A stretch of 26,710 bases of DNA from a virus (IMGVR_UViG_2974578326_000001:1-26710); one strand, 5' to 3'. Positions 5,082 to 18,173 are shown, counted from the first letter of the stretch. The notes: a model not told the origin generated them from the letters alone. Numbers and translations: made by a program.

Positions 5082-5115
5082 ATTGACCTTGAGATTACAA
5101 GGTCTTGGGGTCAAT
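5082..5115 (+). other. RNA hairpin in the capsid mRNA leader
   Basis: 5082-5096 pairs contiguously with 5101-5115 (15 bp, 5 G-U, ACAA loop); alternative perfect 7-bp stem GACCTTG/CAAGGTC (5085-5091 / 5098-5104). Confidence 0.65.
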
Positions 5116-5152
5116 AAATAAAATATGTTTAATTACAGAGGGGAATTCTCTA

Positions 5153-6109
5153 ATGGCTGATAATACTTTAATTTCTTATGATTTGAATGGTAAAAAACTA
5201 TCATTCGCTAACTGGATTTCTAACCTGTCTCCAACTGAAACACCTTTCGTTTCAATGACTGGTAAAGAAGCAATTAATCAGACTCTGTTCCAATGGCAGA
5301 CTGATACATTAGGTCAAGTAGACCTTAACAACGCAGTAGCGGAAGGCTCACCTGCTGAAGATAAAGAACGAAAATCAACAACTGTGTTAAGTAATATCAC
5401 ACAGATTCTTCGTAAGGTAGTAAAAGTTTCTGATACAGCTAACGCATTAGCTAACTATGGTCGTGGTAAAGAACTACAGTACCAAATGGAAAAAGCTGGT
5501 AAAGAAATTAAGCGTGACTTAGAAGCAATCTTCCTGAACAATGGTGCTCGTGTTGATGGTACTGGCCCAGGTTTAGGTGATGCAGGTACTGCTCGTAAAA
5601 CTGCTGGTTTCAAAGCTTTAGTTGCTGCTAAAGATGCAGCTGATACTGATACTGGTGCAGTTGTTCACAAAGAAGCAGAATTAAATGAAGAATCACTATT
5701 TGATTTAACTTACAACTTGTACTTATCTGGTTCTAATGCTAATATCATCATGTTCCACCCTAAACACGCTAGCTTCTTCGCTTCGTTGATGGAAACATCT
5801 GCTGCTGGTTCAAACCGTATGAAGATGTTTGATGGCCCAGAAACACGTTTCAAAAAATATGTTTCTAGTATTGTAGACCCATTAGGTCAAGAGTACAAAT
5901 TGATTCCTAACCGTTTCATGCCACAAGATGCGATTTACTTCTTCGCTCCTAGTGATTGGACTCAAATGGTGTTACGTGCTCCACAACGTACTAAGCTTGC
6001 TAAAGATGGTTCATATGAGAAATGGATGGTTGAAATGGAAGTAGGTCTTCGCCACCGTAACCCATATGCTTCTGGTATCTTAGCTGTTAAGGCTGGTGAG
6101 GGAAAGTAA
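5153..6109 (+). CDS. Major capsid protein, phiEco32/SU10 family (318 aa)
   Basis: Follows scaffold. Motifs SYDLNGKKLSFANWISNLSPTETPF, FQWQTDTL, NITQILRKVVKVSDTA and GKELQYQMEKAGKEIKRDLE are typical of this HK97-fold family. Start set at ATG 5153 after SD GAGGGG (5138-5143). Confidence 0.93.
   Translation: MADNTLISYDLNGKKLSFANWISNLSPTETPFVSMTGKEAINQTLFQWQTDTLGQVDLNNAVAEGSPAEDKERKSTTVLSNITQILRKVVKVSDTANALANYGRGKELQYQMEKAGKEIKRDLEAIFLNNGARVDGTGPGLGDAGTARKTAGFKALVAAKDAADTDTGAVVHKEAELNEESLFDLTYNLYLSGSNANIIMFHPKHASFFASLMETSAAGSNRMKMFDGPETRFKKYVSSIVDPLGQEYKLIPNRFMPQDAIYFFAPSDWTQMVLRAPQRTKLAKDGSYEKWMVEMEVGLRHRNPYASGILAVKAGEGK
6100..6106 (+). other. -1 programmed ribosomal frameshift slippery site G GGA AAG
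   Basis: X XXY YYZ heptamer identical to the lambda G-T slip site, immediately before the capsid stop TAA (6107-6109). The -1 frame has TGA at 6097-6099 just upstream and is then open to 6615. Confidence 0.88.
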
Positions 6110-6615
6110 CAAGCCAGCCCAAAGACGTAACGATTGAGGTTGGTGACTCACTCACTCTGAGTGCAGACGCTGATAAGTATAATAGTGTTCAGTGGTTCAA
6201 GGATGACAAGGAAGTCTCCGGTGCCACTGGCACTACTTATACAAAAGAGAACGTTACTCTCGGTGACGCAGGTAAATACAAAGCTGTGTTTACAGGCTCC
6301 TATGGTAAGTTAGAAACCAATACTGCTACTGTAACGGTTAACGAAAAAACTGTAGAAGTTGAATCAGTTGAGTTAGATACGATTACGGCTGAGGTTAAGA
6401 TTGGTGAAACCATTGATTTAAAAGCAACTGTTAAACCAGATGGTGCAACTGATAAAAAACTTACTTGGAAGTCCTCTGACAATAAACTAGCTACTGTAAC
6501 ACAGACTGGTAAAGTTAAGGGCGTTTCTGAAGGCGAGGTTAAGATTACTGCTACAAGCTCAAACGGTAAATCCGCAGAAGCTACTGTAACAGTTAGTAAA
6601 CCAGATACAGAGTAA
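6106..6615 (+). CDS. Frameshift extension of the capsid protein: I-set-like Ig domain plus Big_2 Ig domain (169 aa; fusion about 487 aa)
   Basis: -1 frame reads VTSQPKDVTIEVGDSLTLSADADKYNSVQWFKDDKEVSGATGTTYTKENVTLGDAGKYKAVFTG (W-x-K and D-x-G-x-Y Ig hallmarks) in frame with ORF 6286-6615, which carries Big_2 signatures (LKATVKPDGATDKKLTWKSSDNKLATV, GKVKGVSEG). Confidence 0.88.
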   Translation, partial: VTSQPKDVTIEVGDSLTLSADADKYNSVQWFKDDKEVSGATGTTYTKENVTLGDAGKYKAVFTGSYGKLETNTATVTVNEKTVEVESVELDTITAEVKIGETIDLKATVKPDGATDKKLTWKSSDNKLATVTQTGKVKGVSEGEVKITATSSNGKSAEATVTVSKPDTE

Positions 6616-7188: not shown

Positions 7189-7884
7189 ATGCAATTTATT
7201 AAGAATTATAAAGATTTGAAAGATTCTGTAAAGCTGTGGCTAAATCGTAGGGATAATGCCACATTAGACAATATTCCAATGTTTATAAACTTTGCAGAAA
7301 AACAATTTACAAGATTAGTCCCTATGCCATATTATGAAGCTAATCTGGAATATAAAGTAGAAGAAGGTAATGGTACATTAATTATACCAAAGGATTTATT
7401 AAAGATAAAACACATAATGGTAAATGGTCAACCATATAACAGATCTGATGTTGAGACATTTATGAGAATGACAAAAAGTGTTAGTTCTAAGAATTCTAAG
7501 AATGAACACTCGGTTGATAAAGATGATGCTATAGCTCTTTCCAATCAATCAGGGTCAACTAGTACAAAAAGTTATTTCTTCACTAGGATTGGAAGTACAT
7601 TACATTTTACACCAACTCCTGTTGATGGAGATGTTATACAACTAATTTACTATAAAGACATACCAGAAATGAAAGATGATGAAGATCAACCTTATTCATT
7701 ACTAATTGCACCTGATGTAATGTTATACTTATCCTTAAGACATGCTTCTATTTGGTTAAGAGATAATGAACAGGAACAATATTGGATGGCTAAAGCACAG
7801 GAAGCTTCTGATTCACTTAAATCACAACTTGATGATGCTGAGTGGTCTGGTTCTGCTCTTGTTGTACCTTACTTTGGAGAATAA
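7189..7884 (+). CDS. Head-tail adaptor (tail tubular protein A-like, 231 aa)
   Basis: SD AGGAGG; N-terminal LKDSVKLWLNRRDNATLDNIPMFINFAE and C-terminal PDVMLYLSL pattern resemble podovirus adaptors; position after the capsid module as in SU10/phiEco32. Confidence 0.8.
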   Translation: MQFIKNYKDLKDSVKLWLNRRDNATLDNIPMFINFAEKQFTRLVPMPYYEANLEYKVEEGNGTLIIPKDLLKIKHIMVNGQPYNRSDVETFMRMTKSVSSKNSKNEHSVDKDDAIALSNQSGSTSTKSYFFTRIGSTLHFTPTPVDGDVIQLIYYKDIPEMKDDEDQPYSLLIAPDVMLYLSLRHASIWLRDNEQEQYWMAKAQEASDSLKSQLDDAEWSGSALVVPYFGE

Positions 7885-7886
7885 TT

Positions 7887-8303
7887 ATGGATGAGTTACA
7901 AGATTATGAATTGAATAAATCAGGTATACCTAATGTTGGTCAGTTTGGCTGGACTTCAACTGATTTAACTGGTGTTACTGATATGATGGTATGGGTTCTT
8001 GAATCACAGAAAGCTGCTAAATCAGCAAGTGATGATGCACAAGTATGTCAAGACATTTCTAAAAATATAGCTAATATTGAAAACGTATTTAACTATAAGA
8101 TAGATGAAGTTGATATGAAGATTGCATTACTAAATCAATCAATTTCAAATCTACAACCACAGTTAGATTCTTTTAATAGAAAATATGATGATTTTAATAA
8201 TAAATATTCTGACTTCTTATTTAAATATGATCAATTCCTGCAGAAACTTCAGGAGTTCCTAGATAAATTAGATGAAGATTTTCCAGAGGGTTTTCCTGAG
8301 TAA
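7887..8303 (+). CDS. Short tail-fibre anchor / coiled-coil stub (138 aa)
   Basis: Occupies the long-fibre position after the adaptor; ends in five heptads (KYDDFNN KYSDFLF KYDQFLQ KLQEFLD KL); no receptor-binding domain. Start set at ATG 7887 after SD GGAG. Confidence 0.6.
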   Translation: MDELQDYELNKSGIPNVGQFGWTSTDLTGVTDMMVWVLESQKAAKSASDDAQVCQDISKNIANIENVFNYKIDEVDMKIALLNQSISNLQPQLDSFNRKYDDFNNKYSDFLFKYDQFLQKLQEFLDKLDEDFPEGFPE

Positions 8304-8709: not shown

Positions 8710-9603
8710 ATGGCTGTTGAAACTGTAGCACAATTTATAACACAGCTAGAACCTTCTTACCCTAGAAAGAATGACTTATTAAAAGAAGGTGATGATCACA
8801 TTAGACTTATTAAACGTATTATTCAAAATACTTTTCCTAAGTTTAATAGTTTTCTATCTATTACCTCTGATAAGTTAAACGATTTAGATAAGAAGTTGGA
8901 GGTTGATGAGACTACACTGAAGGTTACTTCTGGTTTATCATTGACTGGTAAAAGGAAGACTGTAAACTTTAATCCACAGGGTGTTTCAACGAATCAGAAT
9001 ATTGTAACAGGTATTCCAGATCCAAGGAAAGGTAGTGATGGTTTATATGATGCTGTCAATGTTAATTGGTTAACTACATCTGGTGTTATACTTGATAAAG
9101 CTTATCCTGTAGATTCTATCTATATTACAGTTTCTGATTTAAACCCAAAAGACTCTCTAGGTTTTGGTAAATGGGAACCTTTCGGTGAAGGAAGAGTACT
9201 AATGGGTGTTGGTACTGGTAATGATGGGACTAATGTTCGTAAGTTTGATAAACCACTTGTTAAAGGTGGCGAGTATATGCACAAGCTTACAGAGAAAGAA
9301 CTTCCGCCACATAACCATAAAACAGAATTCTCAGTGGAGATGAAGGAAGCTGGTGATCATTATCATGGTTTTGGTGGGGATGACCAATTAGTCTGGGGTA
9401 ATGAATTGTATAATGATGAACACTTTGGTTATGATGCACAATCAAAATCAAATGGTAGATCTAATTATTATAAGACCACTTCAGATGGTAGACATAAACA
9501 TGAAATGAATATTAAATATGAAATGGAAAAAACCGGAGGTGGTGAAGCACATAATGTAATCCAACCTTATATAACTGTGTTTATGTGGAGACGAATTTCA
9601 TAA
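8710..9603 (+). CDS. Short tail fibre with T4 gp10-like C-terminal domain (297 aa)
   Basis: N-terminal GDDHIRLIK motif; YPVDSIYITV...GFGKWEPFGEGRVLMGVG and final IQPYITVFMWRRIS resemble the T4 gp10 C-terminus; three HxH motifs. Confidence 0.82.
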   Translation: MAVETVAQFITQLEPSYPRKNDLLKEGDDHIRLIKRIIQNTFPKFNSFLSITSDKLNDLDKKLEVDETTLKVTSGLSLTGKRKTVNFNPQGVSTNQNIVTGIPDPRKGSDGLYDAVNVNWLTTSGVILDKAYPVDSIYITVSDLNPKDSLGFGKWEPFGEGRVLMGVGTGNDGTNVRKFDKPLVKGGEYMHKLTEKELPPHNHKTEFSVEMKEAGDHYHGFGGDDQLVWGNELYNDEHFGYDAQSKSNGRSNYYKTTSDGRHKHEMNIKYEMEKTGGGEAHNVIQPYITVFMWRRIS

Positions 9604-9612
9604 GGAGTAATG

Positions 9613-11376
9613 ATGGCTATTTTTCATTTAAGAGGGGTTGGTAATAAGGGGGTGATATCTGATATACCCCCATTTGACTTATCCCCTGATACTTGGTCTA
9701 ATGCTAATAATGTTAGATTCCAAGCAAATAGAGTTCAGAAGATAGGTGGTAACAACCCAACTATAATGGAAGGTATGCCTAATGTTAAACCATTGGCTGT
9801 TGTTCAAAGACCTATGAAATCTGAAATGATTTATGGAACAGGAGATCCTTTTACTAATAAGGGTAAGCTATATAGAACTGAGGGTGGTGTTCATGAGGAT
9901 ATAAGCAGATGGGTAGATCCAGATGATCATGACAAAGGAACAGTTGATTATAACAGCAGTCCAACTACACCTTGGAGTTATTCCATTTTATCAAACACTA
10001 TAGTTATGAGTACTAAGTTTGAAGATCCACAAGGAATAACACCTTTCACAGATAGATTTGACACAATACCTGGATGGGGTAAGCCAAAGAAAGACAGTGA
10101 TGTTACCGTCAACTGGAAGACTAACAGGATTAGAGCTTATAAAAACTACTTAATTTGTTTAGGTATGATTGAGAATGGTGTTGAATATGCTCAACGTGTA
10201 AGATGGTCTGATATTGCATTCGTTGATGAGTTGCCTCAGAACTGGTGGGAGGATAGTGAAGATCATGACGGTGGTTTTAACGATTTATCTGATTCTCTTT
10301 CTTATATTATTGATGGTGCTCCTCTTCGAGATTCATTCGTAATATACACTAACAGAGATACATTCTTAATGGATTACGTTGGTGGTGCTTTAGTTTTTAA
10401 CTTTAGGAAGATATTCTCTGATTCTGGTATACTGACTGATGGTTGCTGCGTTGAGTTTGAAGGTAAGCACTTTGTCATTAGTGAGGATGATATTTTTGTT
10501 CATAATGGTTCTACAAGAAAATCAATTGTTACTGGTCGTGTAAAAGATAAACTAATTCAAGAGATTTCTTCTGTAAACCCTAATGCTACGAAGGTATATA
10601 GTTATCCAACCAGAAAAGAAATATGGGTAACTTATGTTAGACCTGGTTCTACAAATCCAGATGGTTTAGACAATTATGCATGTAACAGAGCTGCAGTGTG
10701 GTCTTGGGAATACGACACTTGGTCTTTCTATGATATCCCAGACATTTATGATATTGGACTTGGTATCCCTCCAGATGTAGACAATAGAAGATGGGATACT
10801 ATGTGTGGTACAGAGGGTGAACCTGTTCCAGAAGGTTGTGATGACACTTGGGACGGTAAATCTCATTCTGAAGAAACTTGGGAACCTTATTCTAAGACTT
10901 TCAATAAATTATATATGTATGCAGCTTCTGATGATAATTGCTTTTATACACTTGATACAGGTTTCTTCTTCTATCGATGGGATCATAAAAAATATTGGGA
11001 AGATTTTAAATCAGATGAAACAATAAAGAAAACAGATCCTAAATACCTAAGTAAGTATCCAGTAGTTTGTGAAGTTGAAAGATTATCTTTAGATTTTGAT
11101 GAACAAGAACAAGATATATCATTCTATAAATGGTGGAGATCTATCTATCCACAAATGACTGGTGAAGGAACAGCTAGGTTCTTTGTTGGTGGATCGGATA
11201 ACCCATATAAAGCTCCTATTTGGACTGAGGTTCAGGATTTTGTTATTGGTGAGGATTGGAAAGTTGATTGCTTTAATAACTTTCGTTATCCTGCAATAAA
11301 GATACAGAATTTTTCTGAAGGTGAGTGGGATTTCACTGGTTTTGATATAGAATACTTCAAGGAGGGTAACAGATAA
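9613..11376 (+). CDS. Tail nozzle (tail tubular protein B / P22 gp10-like, 587 aa)
   Basis: GVISDIPPFDL...WSNANNVRF N-terminus, RVRWSD and IIDGAPLRDSFVIYT beta-propeller-type motifs. The second ATG (9613) gives better spacing from SD AAGGAG. Confidence 0.82.
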   Translation: MAIFHLRGVGNKGVISDIPPFDLSPDTWSNANNVRFQANRVQKIGGNNPTIMEGMPNVKPLAVVQRPMKSEMIYGTGDPFTNKGKLYRTEGGVHEDISRWVDPDDHDKGTVDYNSSPTTPWSYSILSNTIVMSTKFEDPQGITPFTDRFDTIPGWGKPKKDSDVTVNWKTNRIRAYKNYLICLGMIENGVEYAQRVRWSDIAFVDELPQNWWEDSEDHDGGFNDLSDSLSYIIDGAPLRDSFVIYTNRDTFLMDYVGGALVFNFRKIFSDSGILTDGCCVEFEGKHFVISEDDIFVHNGSTRKSIVTGRVKDKLIQEISSVNPNATKVYSYPTRKEIWVTYVRPGSTNPDGLDNYACNRAAVWSWEYDTWSFYDIPDIYDIGLGIPPDVDNRRWDTMCGTEGEPVPEGCDDTWDGKSHSEETWEPYSKTFNKLYMYAASDDNCFYTLDTGFFFYRWDHKKYWEDFKSDETIKKTDPKYLSKYPVVCEVERLSLDFDEQEQDISFYKWWRSIYPQMTGEGTARFFVGGSDNPYKAPIWTEVQDFVIGEDWKVDCFNNFRYPAIKIQNFSEGEWDFTGFDIEYFKEGNR

Positions 11377-12938
11377 TGGCTACTACTGATGCTAGGAATA
11401 GAATAAGACAACCTTATCGTTTCTATAAGCCTCAGTTTCTAGATGAGAATAGATTGAAGATGGATCTTGATAGGGAGTTTGAGGATATTTCTCAAGCCCT
11501 CTTGAAAGTATCAGAGAAATTCAATATGATTGATCTTACTCTAGATTTTGATGCTGGTGAGGTTATGGATGAGTTGAATAAGATTAAATCAACCATCGAA
11601 GTTACAATAAAAAGATTAGGTAATTTAGAGGAGGCTAACTCTGAGTTATCATTTAAACTTACTGCACAATATAACGAAATGATGGGATCATTGAGGCATG
11701 TTAACAGGGTTATCTCTAATGCTCAAAGAGCTTTAGCTGAAGCTACACTACAACTGGATGCTGAAACAATTTCTATTCAGAATGATAATGCAAGAATGTC
11801 TGCACATATATCGAGACAAGATATTGTTATTACTGACCACGAACAAGCTATTGCAAGGACTAATGAGAAATTAGATGCAGCTGTTGAGACTATAAACAGC
11901 GATATATTGGCATCTATAGAAACGACGAAAGAAGCAATAGCAACTTTAGAAGAGTCCGTTGCTAGTGTTGAAACTAATATGAATAGTAAATATGATTCAT
12001 TAAGTAAAGTAGTTGATAGTAATAAGAAAGATGCTGATGGTAAATTAGCCGGATTAGATGGTCGTATGGTAACAGCTGAAGCTAATATTAAAACAGTACA
12101 GAAAACATCCGCTGATAATACTAAAGCCATTTCAGAAATGAGTACCGAAATGAGCTCCAAGTTTACTTCTGTGAACAATAGTATTAATTCCACGAATCAG
12201 ACTGTTTCCACAAATAAGAAAGACGCTGACAATAAAATCAATAATACTAACAATACTGTAGCTGCTAATAAAAAGGATGCAGACGGAAAAATAAGTAATG
12301 TTAATGGCAGAGTAGACACTATAGAAGGTAGGGTTAATACTGCTGAAGCCAATATCAAGACTAACGCAAAAACTGGAGCAGATAATAAACAAGCTATAGC
12401 TTCTATGGAAACAAAGATGAATGCCAAGTTCAATGAACAAGAAGCTAAAATTAATACAAAAGCTGTTACACAATTTGATCACTCAGGAACTGGTTCTGCT
12501 ACTTATGAAGTTAACGCTGGTATTAAATGGAATGGCAAAGTTACATCTGCTGGTATGAGAATTGAAGCCTCTGTATCTGGTGGAGTTATGCATTCTGGTG
12601 TTATTTTTGATGCTGATAAATTCAAAGTTCGTAATCCATCTAATGGTACATTTCAAACAGCTTTTGAGGTTAAAGGTGGTAAAACTTACATCAGATCAGC
12701 TTTAATAGATAGTGCTGAAGTTATCACAGAGTTTAAATCTCAGAATTTTGTATCTGGTAAATCTGGTTTTAGATTTGATGCTAAGACCGGTAATGCTGAA
12801 ATGAATGATGCAACTTTTAGAGGAACACTTGATGTGAAATCTGGATCTAGTGGTGGTAGAATGACCATTTCTAATAATCAAATTCTAGTGTATGATGAAA
12901 ATAATAAACTGGTAGTTAAGATAGGATATCTGGGGTGA
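11376..12938 (+). CDS. Tail needle: long coiled coil ending in a J-type (DUF1983-like) tip domain (520 aa)
   Basis: TAATG coupling to nozzle; heptad-rich region of ~330 aa; C-terminal ~146 aa (AGMRIEA...FDADKFKV...TYIRSALI...SQNFVSGKSGFRFDAKTG...ISNNQILVYDENNKLVVKIGYLG) resemble the end of lambdoid/T1 J proteins. Confidence 0.78.
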   Translation: MATTDARNRIRQPYRFYKPQFLDENRLKMDLDREFEDISQALLKVSEKFNMIDLTLDFDAGEVMDELNKIKSTIEVTIKRLGNLEEANSELSFKLTAQYNEMMGSLRHVNRVISNAQRALAEATLQLDAETISIQNDNARMSAHISRQDIVITDHEQAIARTNEKLDAAVETINSDILASIETTKEAIATLEESVASVETNMNSKYDSLSKVVDSNKKDADGKLAGLDGRMVTAEANIKTVQKTSADNTKAISEMSTEMSSKFTSVNNSINSTNQTVSTNKKDADNKINNTNNTVAANKKDADGKISNVNGRVDTIEGRVNTAEANIKTNAKTGADNKQAIASMETKMNAKFNEQEAKINTKAVTQFDHSGTGSATYEVNAGIKWNGKVTSAGMRIEASVSGGVMHSGVIFDADKFKVRNPSNGTFQTAFEVKGGKTYIRSALIDSAEVITEFKSQNFVSGKSGFRFDAKTGNAEMNDATFRGTLDVKSGSSGGRMTISNNQILVYDENNKLVVKIGYLG

Positions 12939-12941
12939 ATT

Positions 12942-13202
12942 ATGAAATGGGGAATACAAACTCTTCAAAATGGTGTTTTACAATCTGCTGTTAGTAGTGC
13001 ATATATAATTGATTCAATTTATGTTGATAGAAATTTATCAAAGACGTATGATTTTGTTGGAGATAATGTTGAATTAATAACTACATCAATGAATAGAACC
13101 CATGGTGGTGGATTAGCTAAAGTTACTGGAAAAACAGTTGAGGCTTTCTATGAAGACAGATGGGGGCCTTACGAATTAGTTATAATTGGAGTTGCTAAAT
13201 GA
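12942..13202 (+). CDS. Small J-associated tail-tip protein (86 aa)
   Basis: MKWGIQTLQNG start resembles the 'YGI.T...G' starts of the small proteins directly downstream of J in T1-like and lambdoid phages; beta-rich. Confidence 0.62.
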   Translation: MKWGIQTLQNGVLQSAVSSAYIIDSIYVDRNLSKTYDFVGDNVELITTSMNRTHGGGLAKVTGKTVEAFYEDRWGPYELVIIGVAK

Positions 13203-13813
13203 GTAAATATGGAATTATTGTAATTGATGATGGTATACCATTGACATTAGCGCCTTATTCGACTTATACTTTTTATAAAAAGTTTATCTTTAATTCTAAC
13301 TTAATGAGCATTGGTATAAGTGATCCTAAGTCTATACCACTTATGTTTACTAGAACCCTTGGACGAAGACCAGATTATACACCTAGATTGTCATATCAAA
13401 ATGGAGCTTGGAGGATAATAGGTGACACAAGTAATGACTTCATATGTTATATTTTTGTTAAAACAGCAGATTTTCCTAATAAAAGTAAATGGGGAATAGA
13501 AGTTTATAATGAAAAAGGTGAGATTGTTCAAAAATCAGGACAAGAATATTTAAAGATTTATTTCCAAAATCACCCAATAAATAAGACTGGATCTTTTGAT
13601 GTTGGTTTTCCATGTGCCAGTATGGATAGACCTGTTGGTAGATTATCTATAAGAGGGCCTGAAGGTTGGGATTTATTCCAATTTGGAACAGTTGGTCAAG
13701 GTAATAGTGTAATATTAACCAGGGCTCAGATAGGTGGCCGATTACCAGGCCCAGGTGGTGAGTACGTTGGAGATATGAACCATTTATTCATAGATGTACG
13801 AGATTATGACTAA
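13199..13813 (+). CDS. Second J-associated tail-tip protein, candidate receptor-binding protein (204 aa)
   Basis: ATGA overlap; MSKYGIIVIDDG start and internal KWGIEVYNEKGEIV repeat typical of the second post-J protein. Confidence 0.62.
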   Translation: MSKYGIIVIDDGIPLTLAPYSTYTFYKKFIFNSNLMSIGISDPKSIPLMFTRTLGRRPDYTPRLSYQNGAWRIIGDTSNDFICYIFVKTADFPNKSKWGIEVYNEKGEIVQKSGQEYLKIYFQNHPINKTGSFDVGFPCASMDRPVGRLSIRGPEGWDLFQFGTVGQGNSVILTRAQIGGRLPGPGGEYVGDMNHLFIDVRDYD

Positions 13814-13824
13814 GGAGTCTAATA

Positions 13825-16452
13825 ATGTCAATGATATATAAAGAAGGTACAGCATCCTTAACAAAAGGTTCTCCTGTGCTAAAAGGTAAGGATACTTATT
13901 TCCTTAATCCTATATTCAATGTAGGTGTTGGTCAGATTGTTCAAGTAAAAACTGGTGATAACGTCTACGTAAACTCAATCAAAGAAGTTATTGATAATGA
14001 AACATTAATCTTATCTTTTGACTCATTAGAAGATGTTACAGATGGTGAAATTGTTATTATGATAACAATGGTTGATTCAATCTCTGATACAGCCAATAAA
14101 CTCCTTGGTATGACACGAGGTTTAGTACAGTTTGAAACAGAGATGACCAAATGGTTCACATCAATGGATAAGAAGATTACTATAACCTTACCTGATGGAA
14201 CCAAAAAAGAAGTTTATACTTTACAAGCTATCATGGAACAAGTTGCTCAGAATGAGAAAGAAATGCAAGAATTACTACAAAATTCTGAGAAGAAAGTAAA
14301 TGACATGGTTGACAAGGCTCAAACAGATGTAAACCAAGTAGTGACAGATGGTACCAATAAGATCAATCAAGCTGTTGATAAGGCTGATAAAGAGATCGGA
14401 GAGGCTATCACATCTGGTACTGGTAAAATTGATACAATGCTTACTGAAAGTCAGAAAAAGATTGATAAAACTATCGAAGATACTGAAGTAAAGGTTGACA
14501 CAGAGCTCGGCAAGATTGATGAGAAGATTGGAAACCGAATAGATGGTAAGGTTGATAAATCTGGTGATAGGATGACAGGAAGTCTAGGTATTGATTCCAA
14601 AGAGTTTAGTCAAAGTATTGAGATTAATGCAGATGCTGAACAAGATCGTACATCTATTGGTAATAAGTTTAAAGATGGATCATTAGCGGTGCTTTCTTTC
14701 TATAAAGATAGATTAAGGTATTCAGGTAAAGATATTATAAGAGATGGTGATTATGGAGTTGGTTACAAAGCCAATAATAACAATAATCCACCACAAAACA
14801 TTTTTAATGATGCGAATGAAATAACATATTCGGGTTTTGGTGCTGGTAATGCTAAATCAACAAACTTTTTTGATTATGGTGCTCCATTAATATCCGCAGC
14901 AAGATTTGGTGGTTCAGATTCTACTGGTCAGGTTTTTCAACTTCAATCTAGAGTATCAAAAACTAATAATGAGATTGCATACAGGACAAGAAATACTAAT
15001 GAGTGGACTGATTGGTTAAAACTTGCTGTTCTGGATACTGTACAAACTCAAACTTTTAAAGGTGCTATAAAGGCTAGAATATTAGATGTTGAAAGTGGTA
15101 ATGATTATTTTGGTATAAGGATTCATGCTAATGGTACACCAGCTTTTTACTCTTATAGAAGTGGTAAAGGGTATGATTATATGCTCCCAAACATTTCCCA
15201 AGGAGGTTATTTATGGGTTAATGCAACCCCAGCTACTCTTGCTTGGGGGTCTTATACAGATGGACAGAATATTGCTAGATTAACCTTTAAAATAACATCA
15301 ACAGGAGATCAGGCACACTTCGGAACTGACAAAACTAATATGTTCCTACAGGCAGTAAACAAGGACGGATCAACGGCTGATATCAAATTTCCAAGAAACT
15401 CTGGAGATTCGTGGGGTGGGGTTTTTAAGAAATCTGGGAGTAGCTATACAATGTATGAACCTAATGGTTCACCTATAATTGAGAACAACGGAAATTTTGA
15501 AACAAGATTTTATGGGTTAGGAAGTAAACCTTCTCAAGATCACTTAATGGTTTTTATGAGAAACTCTGATAAGATGTTCGGTGTTAATTATAGAGGGACT
15601 GACAATAAGACAGCTACTGTTTTTCGTGTGGATTGTGCTAATAAGGTTGCAAAAATTAATGAAGTACCAGTTATGGTTGAGGGAGATTTTGGATTAGGAA
15701 GAGCTGGTATGGGGAAACCCCAAAATATTTCATGCTTCCAAGGAGTTCCTAGTGCTTCTGTTCAAGGTTTCCCTACTAATGGTGCCGGTTTTCAATCTAC
15801 CTATCAAACCAATAGAAGGGCTCAGATGTTTATGAGCACACAGGGGATAGTTTTTACAAGGTTTAGCTTAAGAGATGAGCTTGTAGACGTGACAACTCCC
15901 TGGAATACAGTTTATAGCTCTAAAAATACAACAGTTGATAGTAATGGTTTTATCAAGAGGGCCTCACCTATTATAAAGGTATTTGGAGATGGTTCTTTTG
16001 AGGTAAATGATGAATCAGAAGGTTCTAGTGTTGAAAAAATTAGTAATGGTGTTTATAGAATAAATAATGTTTTAGGTCTAAACTCTGATGATTCTGGGGG
16101 TGGATCGAGTGGTGGTTTTGAAATACCTATTGATAATAATAAACTTCCAATGATTTGGTTAGATTATGAAGTTGAGTCCGATGGGTCTATTATACTAAAA
16201 ACATACCACAGGGAGCATAAAGATGTACCACCTTTTGCTCGTAATCTAAAAAGAGGTTATAGTGATGGAGATCCTTGTGATATCCCAAATGGAAGATTTG
16301 TATCAGTAAGGGTTAATATGCCAGAGGGTTCTATATTTAATCAAATGATGAATAAAGTCGAACAAGAAGATAAAGAAATGGAATCTAATCCTTTCTATAA
16401 AGAGGAAAGGGCTTTTCCAAATATAATCTTTAATAAGAAAGGAGATTTGTAA
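13825..16452 (+). CDS. Long side tail fibre, mosaic (875 aa)
   Basis: N-terminal GTASLTKGSPVLKG anchor, 11-residue coiled-coil repeats, KVDKSGDRMTGSL, two GD(Y/F)G.G-introduced knob-like units ending in W..W/PW motifs, and C-terminal GFIKRASP...DGDPCDIPNGRFVSVRVNMP domain common in enterobacterial fibres. Confidence 0.88.
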   Translation: MSMIYKEGTASLTKGSPVLKGKDTYFLNPIFNVGVGQIVQVKTGDNVYVNSIKEVIDNETLILSFDSLEDVTDGEIVIMITMVDSISDTANKLLGMTRGLVQFETEMTKWFTSMDKKITITLPDGTKKEVYTLQAIMEQVAQNEKEMQELLQNSEKKVNDMVDKAQTDVNQVVTDGTNKINQAVDKADKEIGEAITSGTGKIDTMLTESQKKIDKTIEDTEVKVDTELGKIDEKIGNRIDGKVDKSGDRMTGSLGIDSKEFSQSIEINADAEQDRTSIGNKFKDGSLAVLSFYKDRLRYSGKDIIRDGDYGVGYKANNNNNPPQNIFNDANEITYSGFGAGNAKSTNFFDYGAPLISAARFGGSDSTGQVFQLQSRVSKTNNEIAYRTRNTNEWTDWLKLAVLDTVQTQTFKGAIKARILDVESGNDYFGIRIHANGTPAFYSYRSGKGYDYMLPNISQGGYLWVNATPATLAWGSYTDGQNIARLTFKITSTGDQAHFGTDKTNMFLQAVNKDGSTADIKFPRNSGDSWGGVFKKSGSSYTMYEPNGSPIIENNGNFETRFYGLGSKPSQDHLMVFMRNSDKMFGVNYRGTDNKTATVFRVDCANKVAKINEVPVMVEGDFGLGRAGMGKPQNISCFQGVPSASVQGFPTNGAGFQSTYQTNRRAQMFMSTQGIVFTRFSLRDELVDVTTPWNTVYSSKNTTVDSNGFIKRASPIIKVFGDGSFEVNDESEGSSVEKISNGVYRINNVLGLNSDDSGGGSSGGFEIPIDNNKLPMIWLDYEVESDGSIILKTYHREHKDVPPFARNLKRGYSDGDPCDIPNGRFVSVRVNMPEGSIFNQMMNKVEQEDKEMESNPFYKEERAFPNIIFNKKGDL

Positions 16453-17690: not shown

Positions 17691-18173
17691 ATGGCTGGTA
17701 ATAGAGAGACAACAAATTCAGGATCAAGTTCTATTACCGGAGCAGGTATCAGTACAGCGATTGCCCCCTCTTCTGTGGGGGTTAATCCTACATCTCGTGG
17801 TGAACTGATACTAAATGGTGCTCTGGGTAATGCGGCTATGGGCGGTATGAGTGGCCCTAATATGATTGGATCAAGTGGTGCTGGTTATAATGCTCCAAGT
17901 TTTGGAGGAGGATCTGGAGGTGGTATTCCATCTCAAAGGGATAGGATTCATGCATATATGGGTGGATCATTATTTGATGAAAATGAAGATGAAGAAGAGT
18001 TGATGAAAAAATTCAAACAAATGATGGAGATTATGCAGGGTAAATTAGGGTCTATGCAGCCACAATTATCACCTCAGTTCCAAAACACAAATCAACCTAA
18101 TATGTTTGGTTCTGTACAAAGCCCAAATCTTTTCAATCAATCTGGTGTTTTAAATATGAATAAAACTTTATAA
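17691..18173 (+). CDS. Probable core / ejection protein, Gly/Ser-rich (160 aa)
   Basis: SD AAGGAG; low-complexity composition; lies within the ejection cluster. Confidence 0.65.
   Translation: MAGNRETTNSGSSSITGAGISTAIAPSSVGVNPTSRGELILNGALGNAAMGGMSGPNMIGSSGAGYNAPSFGGGSGGGIPSQRDRIHAYMGGSLFDENEDEEELMKKFKQMMEIMQGKLGSMQPQLSPQFQNTNQPNMFGSVQSPNLFNQSGVLNMNKTL

Follow-up and report, generated by a model that had tools for sequence, protein, structure and literature searches.

The 26,710-nt stretch of DNA analysed here (the window) is the structural module of a podophage of the genus Privateervirus (Grimontviridae), probably Proteus phage Privateer. The initial annotation had described a needle gene, an 86-aa gene, a 204-aa gene and an 875-aa fibre gene, and all four are found where it put them, on the + strand (Table 1). 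From the nozzle through to the ejection protein, the genes called on this strand are tightly coupled, each adjoining its neighbour: the nozzle stop and the needle start have one base in common, as do the fibre stop and the ejection-protein start, while the needle stop lies 3 nt before the 86-aa gene, which itself overlaps the 204-aa gene by 4 nt. The needle gene consists of three parts: a 55-aa plug, a predicted coiled coil of ~310 aa and a J-type tip.

Table 1. Features of the nozzle–fibre region and of the adaptor-proximal fibre slot (positions within the window).
Feature	Position (nt)	Strand	Basis or context
138-aa coiled-coil protein, adaptor-proximal fibre slot	7887-8303	+	phrog_27560, phrog_24774
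Nozzle gene, 588 aa	9610-11376	+	PDB 7z47_G (SU10 gp17), 7-11 gp018
Tail needle gene, 520 aa	11376-12938	+	directly after nozzle
Plug domain, needle residues 1-55	11376-11540	+	phrog_28154, 7-11 gp019, GAP52
Predicted coiled coil, needle residues 56-365	11541-12470	+	L015 J alignment
J-type tail-tip domain, needle residues 366-520	12471-12938	+	PF09327, 23gd_D
86-aa gene	12942-13202	+	transitive family link
204-aa gene	13199-13813	+	fold match 9rpt_C, phrog_425
875-aa side fibre gene	13825-16452	+	PF25670, prophage-type N-terminus
Candidate side-fibre N-terminal dock domain, residues 1-150	13825-14274	+	prophage side-fibre homology
PF25670 domain of fibre, residues 701-834	15925-16326	+	E = 1.4e-56 (Pfam)

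The nozzle protein is the channel plugged by the needle. The nozzle encoded in the window matches SU10 gp17 (7z47_G, E = 9e-71) as well as the nozzle chains 8zkm and 8zkk, and is 56% identical to 7-11 gp018. The start of the needle had been described as podovirus-needle-like, a description supported by family homology and by synteny with SU10 gp18. Residues 8–52 match phrog_28154 (1.1e-15), residues 8–57 are 56% identical to residues 5–54 of 7-11 gp019, and the plug is 56–60% identical to the 7-11 gp019/GAP52 89-aa proteins and 40% identical to the N-terminus of a 535-aa Lahexavirus protein. Homology and gene position thus place it in the post-nozzle mini-needle group (phrog_28154), and it is common to all Grimontviridae examined. 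The likeness did not extend to the solved needles: a profile of five plug sequences found no PDB chain below E 0.1, and Kuravirus is absent from the tblastn matches of needle residues 1–110. A place among podophage tail needles of the P22 gp26/SU10 gp18 type is suggested only by synteny and by the layout of coiled coil plus PF09327 in common with SU10 gp18. Judged from these sequences, the N-terminal domain appears to be family-wide and the plug to have been retained from the Grimontviridae mini-needle.

At the other end of the needle, the Pfam domain Phage_Tail_Tip (PF09327, formerly DUF1983) is found at residues 359–491 (E = 3.2e-26; 92.2 bits for a cut-off of 22), i.e. at nt 12450–12848 (96.5 bits in the genome scan), close to nt 12498, from which a J-type C-terminus had been claimed. 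The tip is likewise matched by J-like gp24, a tail tip protein of solved structure (23gd_D; 1.5e-29), and by J genes in ~1,300 phage records. The domain is of the beta-prism/beta-helix type and ends in a conserved motif (...VYDENxxLxVKIGYLG), through which it also aligns with DEV gp56 (9ze4_N). It is nearer to prophage J than to other podophage needles: the tip is 44–48% identical to Morganella prophage J, but only 25% identical to the Kuravirus needle (119 aa, E = 0.02), and the distal needle of Privateervirus found no match in the J-like part of the Lahexavirus protein.

The resemblance to J is not confined to the tip: residues 56–520 of the needle (465 aa) match, end to end, the distal ~530 aa of J from a lambdoid prophage (L015 J residues 838–1368; 29% identity over 550 columns, 4e-48), the stalk pairing with J residues 838 to ~1200 within this match. 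The ~310-aa coiled coil is assigned from the way this stretch aligns with the coiled-coil region of J proteins; a Fourier test of hydrophobic periodicity gives only a weak peak near 3.6 residues. The stalk is predicted to be a long trimeric coiled coil, the counterpart of the J central-fibre stalk, and may be where the side fibre docks. It differs in length by 18 aa from that of Cronobacter phage 009 (needle residues 283–300, with an NKKDAD repeat at the bounds). Note that Pfam detects PF09327 but none of the N-terminal hub or FNIII domains of J (PF13550 Phage-tail_3, PF24801 and others) in the 520-aa protein. Since only the part equivalent to J ~838–1368 is present, the needle carries a distal J module and is not itself a J protein.

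The 86-aa protein belongs to a family whose members are linked transitively (Cs009_87 to L014_86 at 3e-5, L014_86 to JenP1 gp22 at 3e-6, and further to L015_91, L020_84 and Vib_89), pairwise homology between the protein and its family being weak (E 0.004–0.1). The family member is always encoded directly upstream of a ~205-aa gene, and its N-terminal hairpin motif also occurs in the 204-aa family, as judged by hhalign. It is a candidate small tip subunit, adaptor or second receptor-binding subunit. The AF2 model of the 204-aa protein (pLDDT 78) has 9rpt_C as its best fold match (Foldseek probability 1.0; VIA Z 9.4, rmsd 3.1, 144 aa), the next-best reaching Z 4.4; the low-confidence stretches of the model (residues 1–20 and 95–120) coincide with the positions of the hairpin motif found in common with the 86-aa protein. 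The 204-aa protein also matches phrog_425 (JenP1 gp21; 4.4e-9), and its homologues are located after J in prophages. The pair thus has the gene arrangement of a post-J pair of receptor-binding proteins (RBPs), i.e. two small coupled genes right after a J-like gene, as in prophages, together with the corresponding fold and sequence links (9rpt_C, phrog_425 and JenP1 gp22), and the modelled fold makes the 204-aa protein a candidate RBP on the needle tip.

The 875-aa protein combines the two sequence features of a side fibre, an N-terminal domain common to such fibres and a C-terminal PF25670 domain, separated by a variable shaft. Its residues 3–150 match the side-fibre N-termini of L014, L022, L015, L016, L019 and six Morganellaceae loci (E 3e-15 to 3e-8). 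A monomer model of this N-terminal domain (pLDDT 73) gave only unspecific matches to small beta-barrels, tailspike N-termini among them, and no F7 pyocin chain was among its structural matches. In the adaptor-proximal slot, the 138-aa protein matches the 7-11 gp015 family (phrog_27560, 1.7e-29), and its N-terminal part is common to 7-11 gp013 (phrog_24774, 1.7e-8). There is no gp013 or gp014 homologue within the window, and the 138-aa protein appears to be the sole remnant of the slot that holds gp013, gp014 and gp015 in 7-11. With these adaptor-proximal long fibres lost, host range is likely determined chiefly by the needle cassette.

The order J tip, optional lipoprotein, ~86 aa, ~205 aa and PF25670 fibre recurs in prophages L015, L016, L019/L020 and L022, which are lambdoid (M-L-K-I-J tail genes present), as well as in Vibrio siphophage 83AMN and six Morganellaceae loci. 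The genome matches to the tip all fall in Morganellaceae (six of six), each with a side-fibre N-terminal domain of the same type 1.2–1.7 kb downstream. Together with the J alignment, this conserved order upholds the claim that the distal needle, two small genes and fibre form a siphovirus-type cassette. By contrast, in 7-11, GAP52, pSal-SNUABM-01 and PKM.Lu.22.1 a plug of 72–89 aa is followed directly by the ejection protein. As these four other Grimontviridae have the plug only, the cassette is confined to Privateervirus, the genus to which all tblastn records above 60% identity to the tip belong, and the architecture is not the standard of the family. The SU10-type needle, on the other hand, had been said to end simply, which is wrong: SU10 gp18 (322 aa) contains PF09327 (3.7e-27). 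The domain is also found on Kuravirus Bas87_0014 and on the plug-bearing, needle-like 535-aa protein of Aeromonas Lahexavirus, which consists of a homologous plug N-terminus, a coiled coil and PF09327. A J-type tip is thus an old and common feature of podovirus needles across the phiEco32-like supergroup; the fused architecture may be ancestral, the distal part alone having been exchanged.

Within the genus, the tail proteins of the Proteus phage and of Cronobacter phage 009 are 94–100% identical, save the 86-aa protein (45%), the 204-aa protein (39%) and the fibre shaft. Sister contig L021 has a different 204-aa gene, and the final ~70 aa of its needle have been exchanged. The hot spot of divergence at the two small genes and the fibre shaft reads as a host-switch signature.

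We consider it probable that the needle is chimeric, a Grimontviridae plug having been combined with the distal part of a lambda-type J from a Morganellaceae prophage, along with the 86-aa, ~205-aa and side-fibre genes. The analysis establishes the domain composition, the homologies, the synteny, the restriction to the genus, the hot spot of divergence and the modelled 204-aa fold. Residues 1–55 would be the family's own plug, seated in the nozzle channel, and residues 56–520 the complete protruding part of a J central tail fibre, a ~310-residue stalk with its PF09327 tip. Recombination with a lambdoid prophage from the Morganellaceae, the family of the host, would have brought in the distal part or replaced an earlier one, together with the three post-J genes (~86-aa subunit, ~205-aa RBP and side fibre). 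As to stoichiometry, docking sites, receptor class and trigger, we infer that the needle would be a trimer whose conserved C-terminus is capped by one 86-aa and one 204-aa protein, which would bind an outer-membrane protein receptor, while side-fibre trimers would dock on the coiled coil by their N-terminal domain and bind a surface glycan. Receptor contact at the tip would then be relayed down the stalk, freeing the plug from the nozzle, so that ejection proteins and DNA can pass through the opened channel. The hybrid adsorption device proposed in the initial annotation stands as regards its siphovirus- or prophage-type module; it has, however, precedents in DEV gp56-gp55-gp54 (PMC12892993) and the F7 pyocin (PMC12874032), and what is new here is confined to the extended fibre, the accessory gene pair and the side fibre. 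The locus would illustrate a natural module swap between phage body plans, with parts already known in other short-tailed phages.

The presence of PF09327 on SU10 gp18 and Bas87_0014, and the union of homologous plug, coiled coil and PF09327 in the Lahexavirus protein, could also be explained by vertical inheritance: an ancestral phiEco32-like needle of this composition would have been kept and lengthened in Privateervirus and cut to a mini-plug in the 7-11/GAP52 lineage, the accessory genes being old podophage genes lost elsewhere. We regard this as quite improbable, since the distal needle is much closer to Morganellaceae prophage J (44–48% in the tip, 29% over 465 aa) than it is to the needle of Kuravirus, with its marginal match, or to the unmatched J-like part of the Lahexavirus protein. 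Furthermore, all relatives of the three downstream genes come from cassettes of siphophages or prophages with an identical gene order, and no accessory pair or side fibre follows the needle in Kuravirus or Lahexavirus.

The 875-aa protein might be a relocated long tail fibre sitting on the adaptor like SU10 gp12, possibly via the 138-aa protein, which is encoded after the adaptor and shares its N-terminal part with 7-11 gp013. Its PF25670 domain has 66% identity with the C-terminal domain of adaptor-bound SU10 gp12, the adaptor is conserved (61% identity to that of 7-11; PF24175 SU10_adaptor in L021) and the usual partners gp013 and gp014 are missing. This is nonetheless unlikely: the first ~150 residues of the fibre are homologous to the N-termini of post-J prophage side fibres and resemble neither the N-terminus by which SU10 gp12 binds the adaptor (hhalign probability 0.3%) nor 7-11 gp013/gp014, and the F7 pyocin side fibre, likened to it by gene position, docks on the coiled coil of the central fibre. 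The 86- and 204-aa proteins, for their part, could be chaperones of assembly, such as fibre chaperones, or non-structural proteins, such as exclusion factors, as small genes beside fibre genes often encode chaperones and PHROG labels the nearest family, phrog_425, 'membrane associated protein; moron'. That seems highly improbable given the match of the 204-aa fold to a solved receptor-bound RBP (9rpt_C), the structural, essential RBP subunits at the homologous position in DEV, the F7 pyocin and small siphoviruses, and the divergence between the Proteus and Cronobacter phages, which peaks at exactly these genes. Both proteins lack a signal peptide and a lipobox, which sets them apart from the genuine exclusion lipoproteins found beside prophage cassettes (L014_84, L020_85 and Vib_93).

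Among known systems, SU10 offers a parallel in needle position and layout: its gp18, also encoded after the nozzle and also a coiled coil with a C-terminal PF09327, is a 26-nm trimeric coiled coil that plugs the nozzle and detaches at infection (PMC9509320). Its identity to the Privateervirus needle is marginal (25% over 119 aa), the 322-aa SU10 needle is followed by no accessory pair or side fibre, and the SU10 fibres gp12 and gp13 are adaptor-bound. Counting against a long needle in this phage, published micrographs of Privateer describe a stubby ~10-nm tail and do not mention a long needle or fibres.

The needle and its downstream genes also resemble the F7 pyocin (CFP-PyoF11-PyoF12-SFP) and the lambdoid cassette, which have the same four-part order and domains. 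[quoted passage not shown] With the lambdoid cassette, the J stalk and tip align end to end, and the ~205-aa family and side-fibre N-terminal domain are common to Privateervirus, Morganellaceae prophages and the Vibrio siphophage. In Privateervirus, however, the 55-aa podophage plug takes the place of the first ~840 aa of J (hub, FNIII), with no tape measure, hub or tube behind it and no exclusion lipoprotein. RBP loci downstream of gpJ determine the terminal receptor in small siphoviruses (BASEL, PMC8594841), and such a locus next to gpJ encodes the RBP of the siphophage Oekolampad (Dhillonvirus), solved on LptDE (9rpt_C), the one structure that the 204-aa model matches strongly; the Oekolampad RBP has 254 aa and is 17% identical, and the receptor of the 204-aa protein need not be LptD.

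The Pseudomonas podophage DEV (Schitoviridae), finally, is likewise short-tailed and has a J-like trimeric fibre made of a coiled coil and a C-terminal beta-helix (PDB 9ze4), although it belongs to a different virus family and has no close sequence relation to Privateervirus (E 0.13). Its gp56 trimer, with a single copy each of gp55 and gp54, binds LptD and regulates how the tail is sealed (PMC12892993). These two small tip proteins, the larger of which binds the outer-membrane protein LptD, are encoded directly downstream of gp56, an arrangement like that of the 86- and 204-aa genes. The DEV operon has no side fibre, whereas that of Privateervirus does, and gp56 is a separate fibre beside a distinct plug, gp74, whereas the Privateervirus J-type fibre is fused to the plug and should be axial.

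The window is 93% identical in DNA sequence to Proteus phage 3H10_20, and it is also close to Vb_PmiP-P59, J3S and Cronobacter phage vB_CsaP_009 (hereafter 009), all four of which belong to the genus Privateervirus of the Grimontviridae. Its gene order is of the phiEco32/SU10-like prolate podophage type, with the needle gene and the three genes that follow it lying between the nozzle gene and those for the ejection proteins. The 138-aa coiled-coil protein encoded next to the adaptor is the orthologue of gp015 of phage 7-11 (phrog_27560, 1.7e-29), and its N-terminal part is common to 7-11 gp013. The 7-11 long-fibre genes gp013 and gp014 are absent from the adaptor-proximal slot of the window, where the gp015 orthologue alone remains; the 138-aa gene is therefore a retained separate gene and not a truncated long fibre. 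Elsewhere in the window, an Ig-like (Big_2) ORF adjoins the major capsid gene downstream, the two being joined by a GGGAAAG programmed frameshift according to the Privateer genome paper, and a 160-aa ORF, 91% conserved within the genus, is found between the first ejection protein gene and the next conserved gene. This 160-aa ORF has no counterpart in 7-11 and no match in Pfam or PHROG.

Features of the window, in gene order
Feature	Position	Remark
Portal, scaffold, capsid		first in gene order, before the adaptor
Ig-like (Big_2) ORF	5105-6615 (region of the major capsid gene and this ORF)	
Adaptor	7189-7884	
138-aa protein	7887-8303	followed by a 78-aa protein
Short fibre	8710-9603	with Gp10_C
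Nozzle	9610-11376	match to SU10 gp17 (PDB 7z47_G, 9e-71)
Needle, 520 aa	11376-12938	plug 1-55, predicted stalk 56-365, J-type tip 366-520
86-aa protein	12942-13202	
204-aa protein	13199-13813	
Fibre, 875 aa	13825-16452	
Ejection proteins	16452 onward	phrog_4287
160-aa ORF	17691-18173	

The needle gene starts at the last base of the nozzle gene. The initial annotation had described its product as a podovirus-needle-like start followed by a coiled coil and a J-like end, with two small proteins and a fibre encoded behind it, and this description holds. Indeed, residues 8-52 match phrog_28154 (a 74-residue family), residues 359-491 match the Pfam Phage_Tail_Tip family (PF09327, 3.2e-26), and the needle is matched by the solved J-like tail tip protein 23gd_D (1.5e-29, residues 939-1131 of the 1148 of that chain) and by the T1-size fibre 9l9p_S. 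The plug residues are 56-60% identical to the small post-nozzle proteins of 7-11 (gp019, 74 aa), GAP52 (89 aa), pSal-SNUABM-01 (72 aa) and PKM.Lu.22.1 (74 aa), and the plug profile found no match in the PDB. The architecture is thus not standard in the family: it is specific to the genus, and these four other Grimontviridae have a plug of 72-89 aa. When residues 355-520 were used as a tblastn query, 1,321 phage records were matched, at less than 60% identity except in eight Privateervirus records; among the matches listed, those outside Privateervirus were all siphophage J-type fibres, from Dhillonvirus, Drexlerviridae, HK97-like phages, Webervirus, Queuovirinae, and Burkholderia and Ralstonia phages.

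The last ~530 residues (838-1368) of the J protein of a lambdoid prophage (L015) align in one block with needle residues 56-520 (29% identity, 4e-48), and the J protein of a second prophage-type locus (L016) likewise gives a one-block alignment with this region. Since the J block begins at residue 56 and the plug match ends at residue ~55-57, the needle is a clean two-part protein; by these alignments, it consists of the family plug joined to all of the J fibre that protrudes, and the J hub and FNIII domains are absent. An 18-aa segment at residues 283-300 (window 12222-12275), bounded by a repeated NKKDAD motif, is absent from phage 009 and from a sister metagenomic contig (L021), from which it follows that stalk length varies by slippage between short repeats (needles of 520, 509 and 502 aa).

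When the 204-aa protein was used as query in an exhaustive HMMER search, only nine cluster representatives out of 1.84 billion were matched, so that the family is either rare or fast-evolving; a word-index homologue search returned the protein itself alone. The homologues with a readable context (L015, L016 and L019/L020) sit in lambdoid prophages, in the order tape measure, M, L, K, I, J (with PF09327), a protein of ~85-91 aa, a protein of ~205-223 aa and a ~500-aa PF25670 fibre. The same order recurs in a Morganella morganii contig (L022: J, lipoprotein, 86 aa, 205 aa, 498-aa fibre) and, behind a 993-aa J, in Vibrio siphophage vB_VibM_83AMN (Queuovirinae), which bears out the earlier proposal that the small proteins and the fibre form a siphophage cassette. 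By transitive links, the 86-aa family takes in the 93-aa protein encoded at the JenP1 RBP locus, and phrog_425, which has the 204-aa neighbour of J in JenP1 as its prototype, is the family matched by the 204-aa protein; PDB sequence searches with either protein gave no match. The extra small ORFs of the prophage and siphophage cassettes start with lipoprotein signal peptides and are expected to be Cor/Llp-like exclusion proteins; the window cassette has no exclusion-type ORF with a lipoprotein signal.

Over its first ~150 residues, the 875-aa fibre shows homology to the N-terminal regions of the side fibres of these prophages (3e-15 to 3e-8). A fold search with a model of the side-fibre N-terminus returned generic beta-barrel matches alone, headed by a phage tail tube chain (9e-4), with endosialidase N-termini and ATPase barrels further down. 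Reference genomes were scanned with patterns from tip alignment A3, alignment A1 being too divergent, and six loci were found (four in Morganella, the others in Photorhabdus and Moellerella). All six carry, 1.2-1.7 kb past the J tip, a side fibre that shares both the N-terminal domain and PF25670. The six loci are all in Morganellaceae, a restriction that is indicative only, since A3 patterns favour close relatives.

The AF2 model of the 204-aa protein (pLDDT 78, pTM 0.76) is all-beta with two domains and has one strong structural neighbour, the LptDE-bound receptor-binding protein of siphophage Oekolampad (9rpt chain C; Foldseek probability 1.0). VIA-align gives this match a Z of 9.4, with an rmsd of 3.1 A over 144 aligned residues, and the next-best match a Z of 4.4. 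According to hhalign, the 86-aa and 204-aa families share a ~22-residue N-terminal hairpin alone, with probabilities of 86% (residues 96-118) and 45% (residues 1-27). The sites of this motif coincide with the two stretches that are modelled at low confidence (residues 1-20 and 95-120), which are candidate docking strands. The reading of the pair as three copies of one domain forming a pseudo-trimer was dropped in view of this limited likeness, and remains as a hint.

Between the window and phage 009, the tail proteins are 94-100% identical, with the exception of the 86-aa protein (45%), the 204-aa protein (39%) and the fibre shaft; within the pair, identity peaks at the N-termini, as well as at the C-terminus of the 204-aa protein, and is lower between. 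Phage 009 has an extra 158-aa gene (L002:7776-8252) between its 206-aa gene and the fibre gene. The product of this extra gene is paralogous to the 204/206-aa protein over the C-terminal half of the latter (26% identity, 1e-6), and the gene is absent from the Proteus phages. In L021 (Logan SRR31800931, 10001-12148), the needle is ~97% identical to that of the window up to residue ~443 and divergent over its last ~70 residues; directly behind it lies an unrelated 204-aa gene (start MYGVYI..., no PHROG match), the 86-aa gene being absent. This arrangement looks like a natural swap of tip and RBP alleles within the genus, and direct contact between the extreme needle tip and the accessory gene products predicts just such a joint replacement.

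The initial annotation had set this device against an SU10-type needle said to end simply, which is wrong. SU10 gp18 (L029:19088-20056, 322 aa), annotated 'putative tail tip fiber protein', bears a full PF09327 domain (3.7e-27), and the needle of Kuravirus-like Bas87 (Bas87_0014, L024:7485-8453) bears PF09327 as well; the tip of the SU10 needle is thus a J-type domain, which the SU10 structure paper called a beta-prism like those of myophage central spikes, and no more (PMC9509320). The 535-aa product of gene 068 of Aeromonas Lahexavirus 4_4572 (L023:9400-11007) opens with a plug of the Grimontviridae kind, which is followed by a coiled coil and PF09327, and ends in an additional C-terminal domain of ~130 aa; its gene lies two genes off the nozzle, past the first ejection protein, and an unrelated 148-aa gene fills the needle slot. 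The occurrence of PF09327 on the SU10, Bas87 and Lahexavirus proteins therefore makes the plug-stalk-J-tip needle old in this supergroup, the 7-11/GAP52 lineage having a reduced form of it. Even so, the Privateervirus stalk and tip lie much nearer to Morganellaceae prophage J, at 44-48% identity in the tip, than to the Kuravirus needle, at 25% over 119 aa (E 0.02), and no counterparts of the three downstream genes were found behind the Kuravirus or Lahexavirus needle. From these comparisons, the most economical history is that a prophage cassette took the place of the distal needle, an exchange that the common architecture made easy.

In the mechanism that we propose, the needle would be a trimer with its 55-aa plug seated in the nozzle and a ~310-residue stalk spanning roughly 45 nm if fully helical. 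The PF09327 tip would be capped by one 86-aa and one 204-aa protein, which would bind an outer-membrane protein, the side fibres would sit on the stalk and bind glycan, and tip engagement would lead to plug release. Counting against the model are the published micrographs, which describe a stubby 10-nm tail alone; negative staining can easily fail to reveal a coiled coil 2 nm wide, but this lends the model no support. It is also conceivable, if unlikely, that the stalk is an F7-pyocin-type fold-switching element whose collapse pulls the plug from the nozzle or draws the virion onto the membrane. The fold-switch motif SxSxxMxxLxS has 7 matches in the stalk versus 3.2 +/- 1.7 in shuffles (p about 0.05), too weak a result for a claim of fold switching, and this variant of the trigger is only weakly hinted at by the sequence. 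If it were true, a short-tailed phage would owe its ejection to an energy-storing trigger of siphophage type, and the last ~465 J residues plus three genes would be a transplantable module sufficient in itself for adsorption and triggering.

Replacement of the distal needle is also a natural experiment that marks the boundary of a portable host-recognition module: because the rest of the siphophage tail is absent, the last ~465 J residues must suffice to carry the RBP pair and the side fibre. The podophage needle offers a small, axial, symmetric system for studying how J-type tips hold a cap that is asymmetric (1+1) and how the binding of a receptor is passed on so as to open the channel. On this reading, tail-tip modules pass between siphophage prophages and virulent podophages with a common host family, a mobility that bears on the prediction of receptors and host range for the Proteus and Cronobacter phages considered for therapy.

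Finally, of the hybrid device initially put forward, the prophage-J stalk and tip and the three cassette genes stand; the concept itself has precedents in podophage DEV and F7 pyocin. In DEV, the J-like fibre is a gp56 trimer whose C-terminal beta-helix holds a single copy each of gp55 and gp54; gp54 is the LptD-binding subunit, and the fibre governs the sealing of the tail (PMC12892993). In F7 pyocin, the PyoF11 and PyoF12 genes follow the central fibre gene and their products are the predicted central-fibre cap, three side-fibre trimers use their N-terminal domains to attach to the coiled coil of the central fibre, and this coiled coil converts to a beta-prism on receptor binding (PMC12874032). 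In small coliphages, RBP loci adjoining gpJ set the terminal receptor (PMC8594841). The Privateer genome paper makes no mention of fibres, needle or J, and the Privateervirus module is a genus-specific, previously undescribed form of an adsorption module known elsewhere. Its 875-aa fibre has a PF25670 domain 66% identical to that of SU10 gp12, whereas its prophage-type N-terminus bears no detectable likeness to the adaptor-binding N-terminus of gp12 (hhalign probability 0.3%). While the J-like fibre of DEV stands beside the plug, the J-type fibre of Privateervirus is fused to the plug, which would be axial. New in this genus, besides the fusion, are the full set that comes with the fibre (stalk, tip, accessory pair and side fibre), the prophage-type N-terminus of the side fibre and the absence of the adaptor-proximal 7-11 long-fibre genes.
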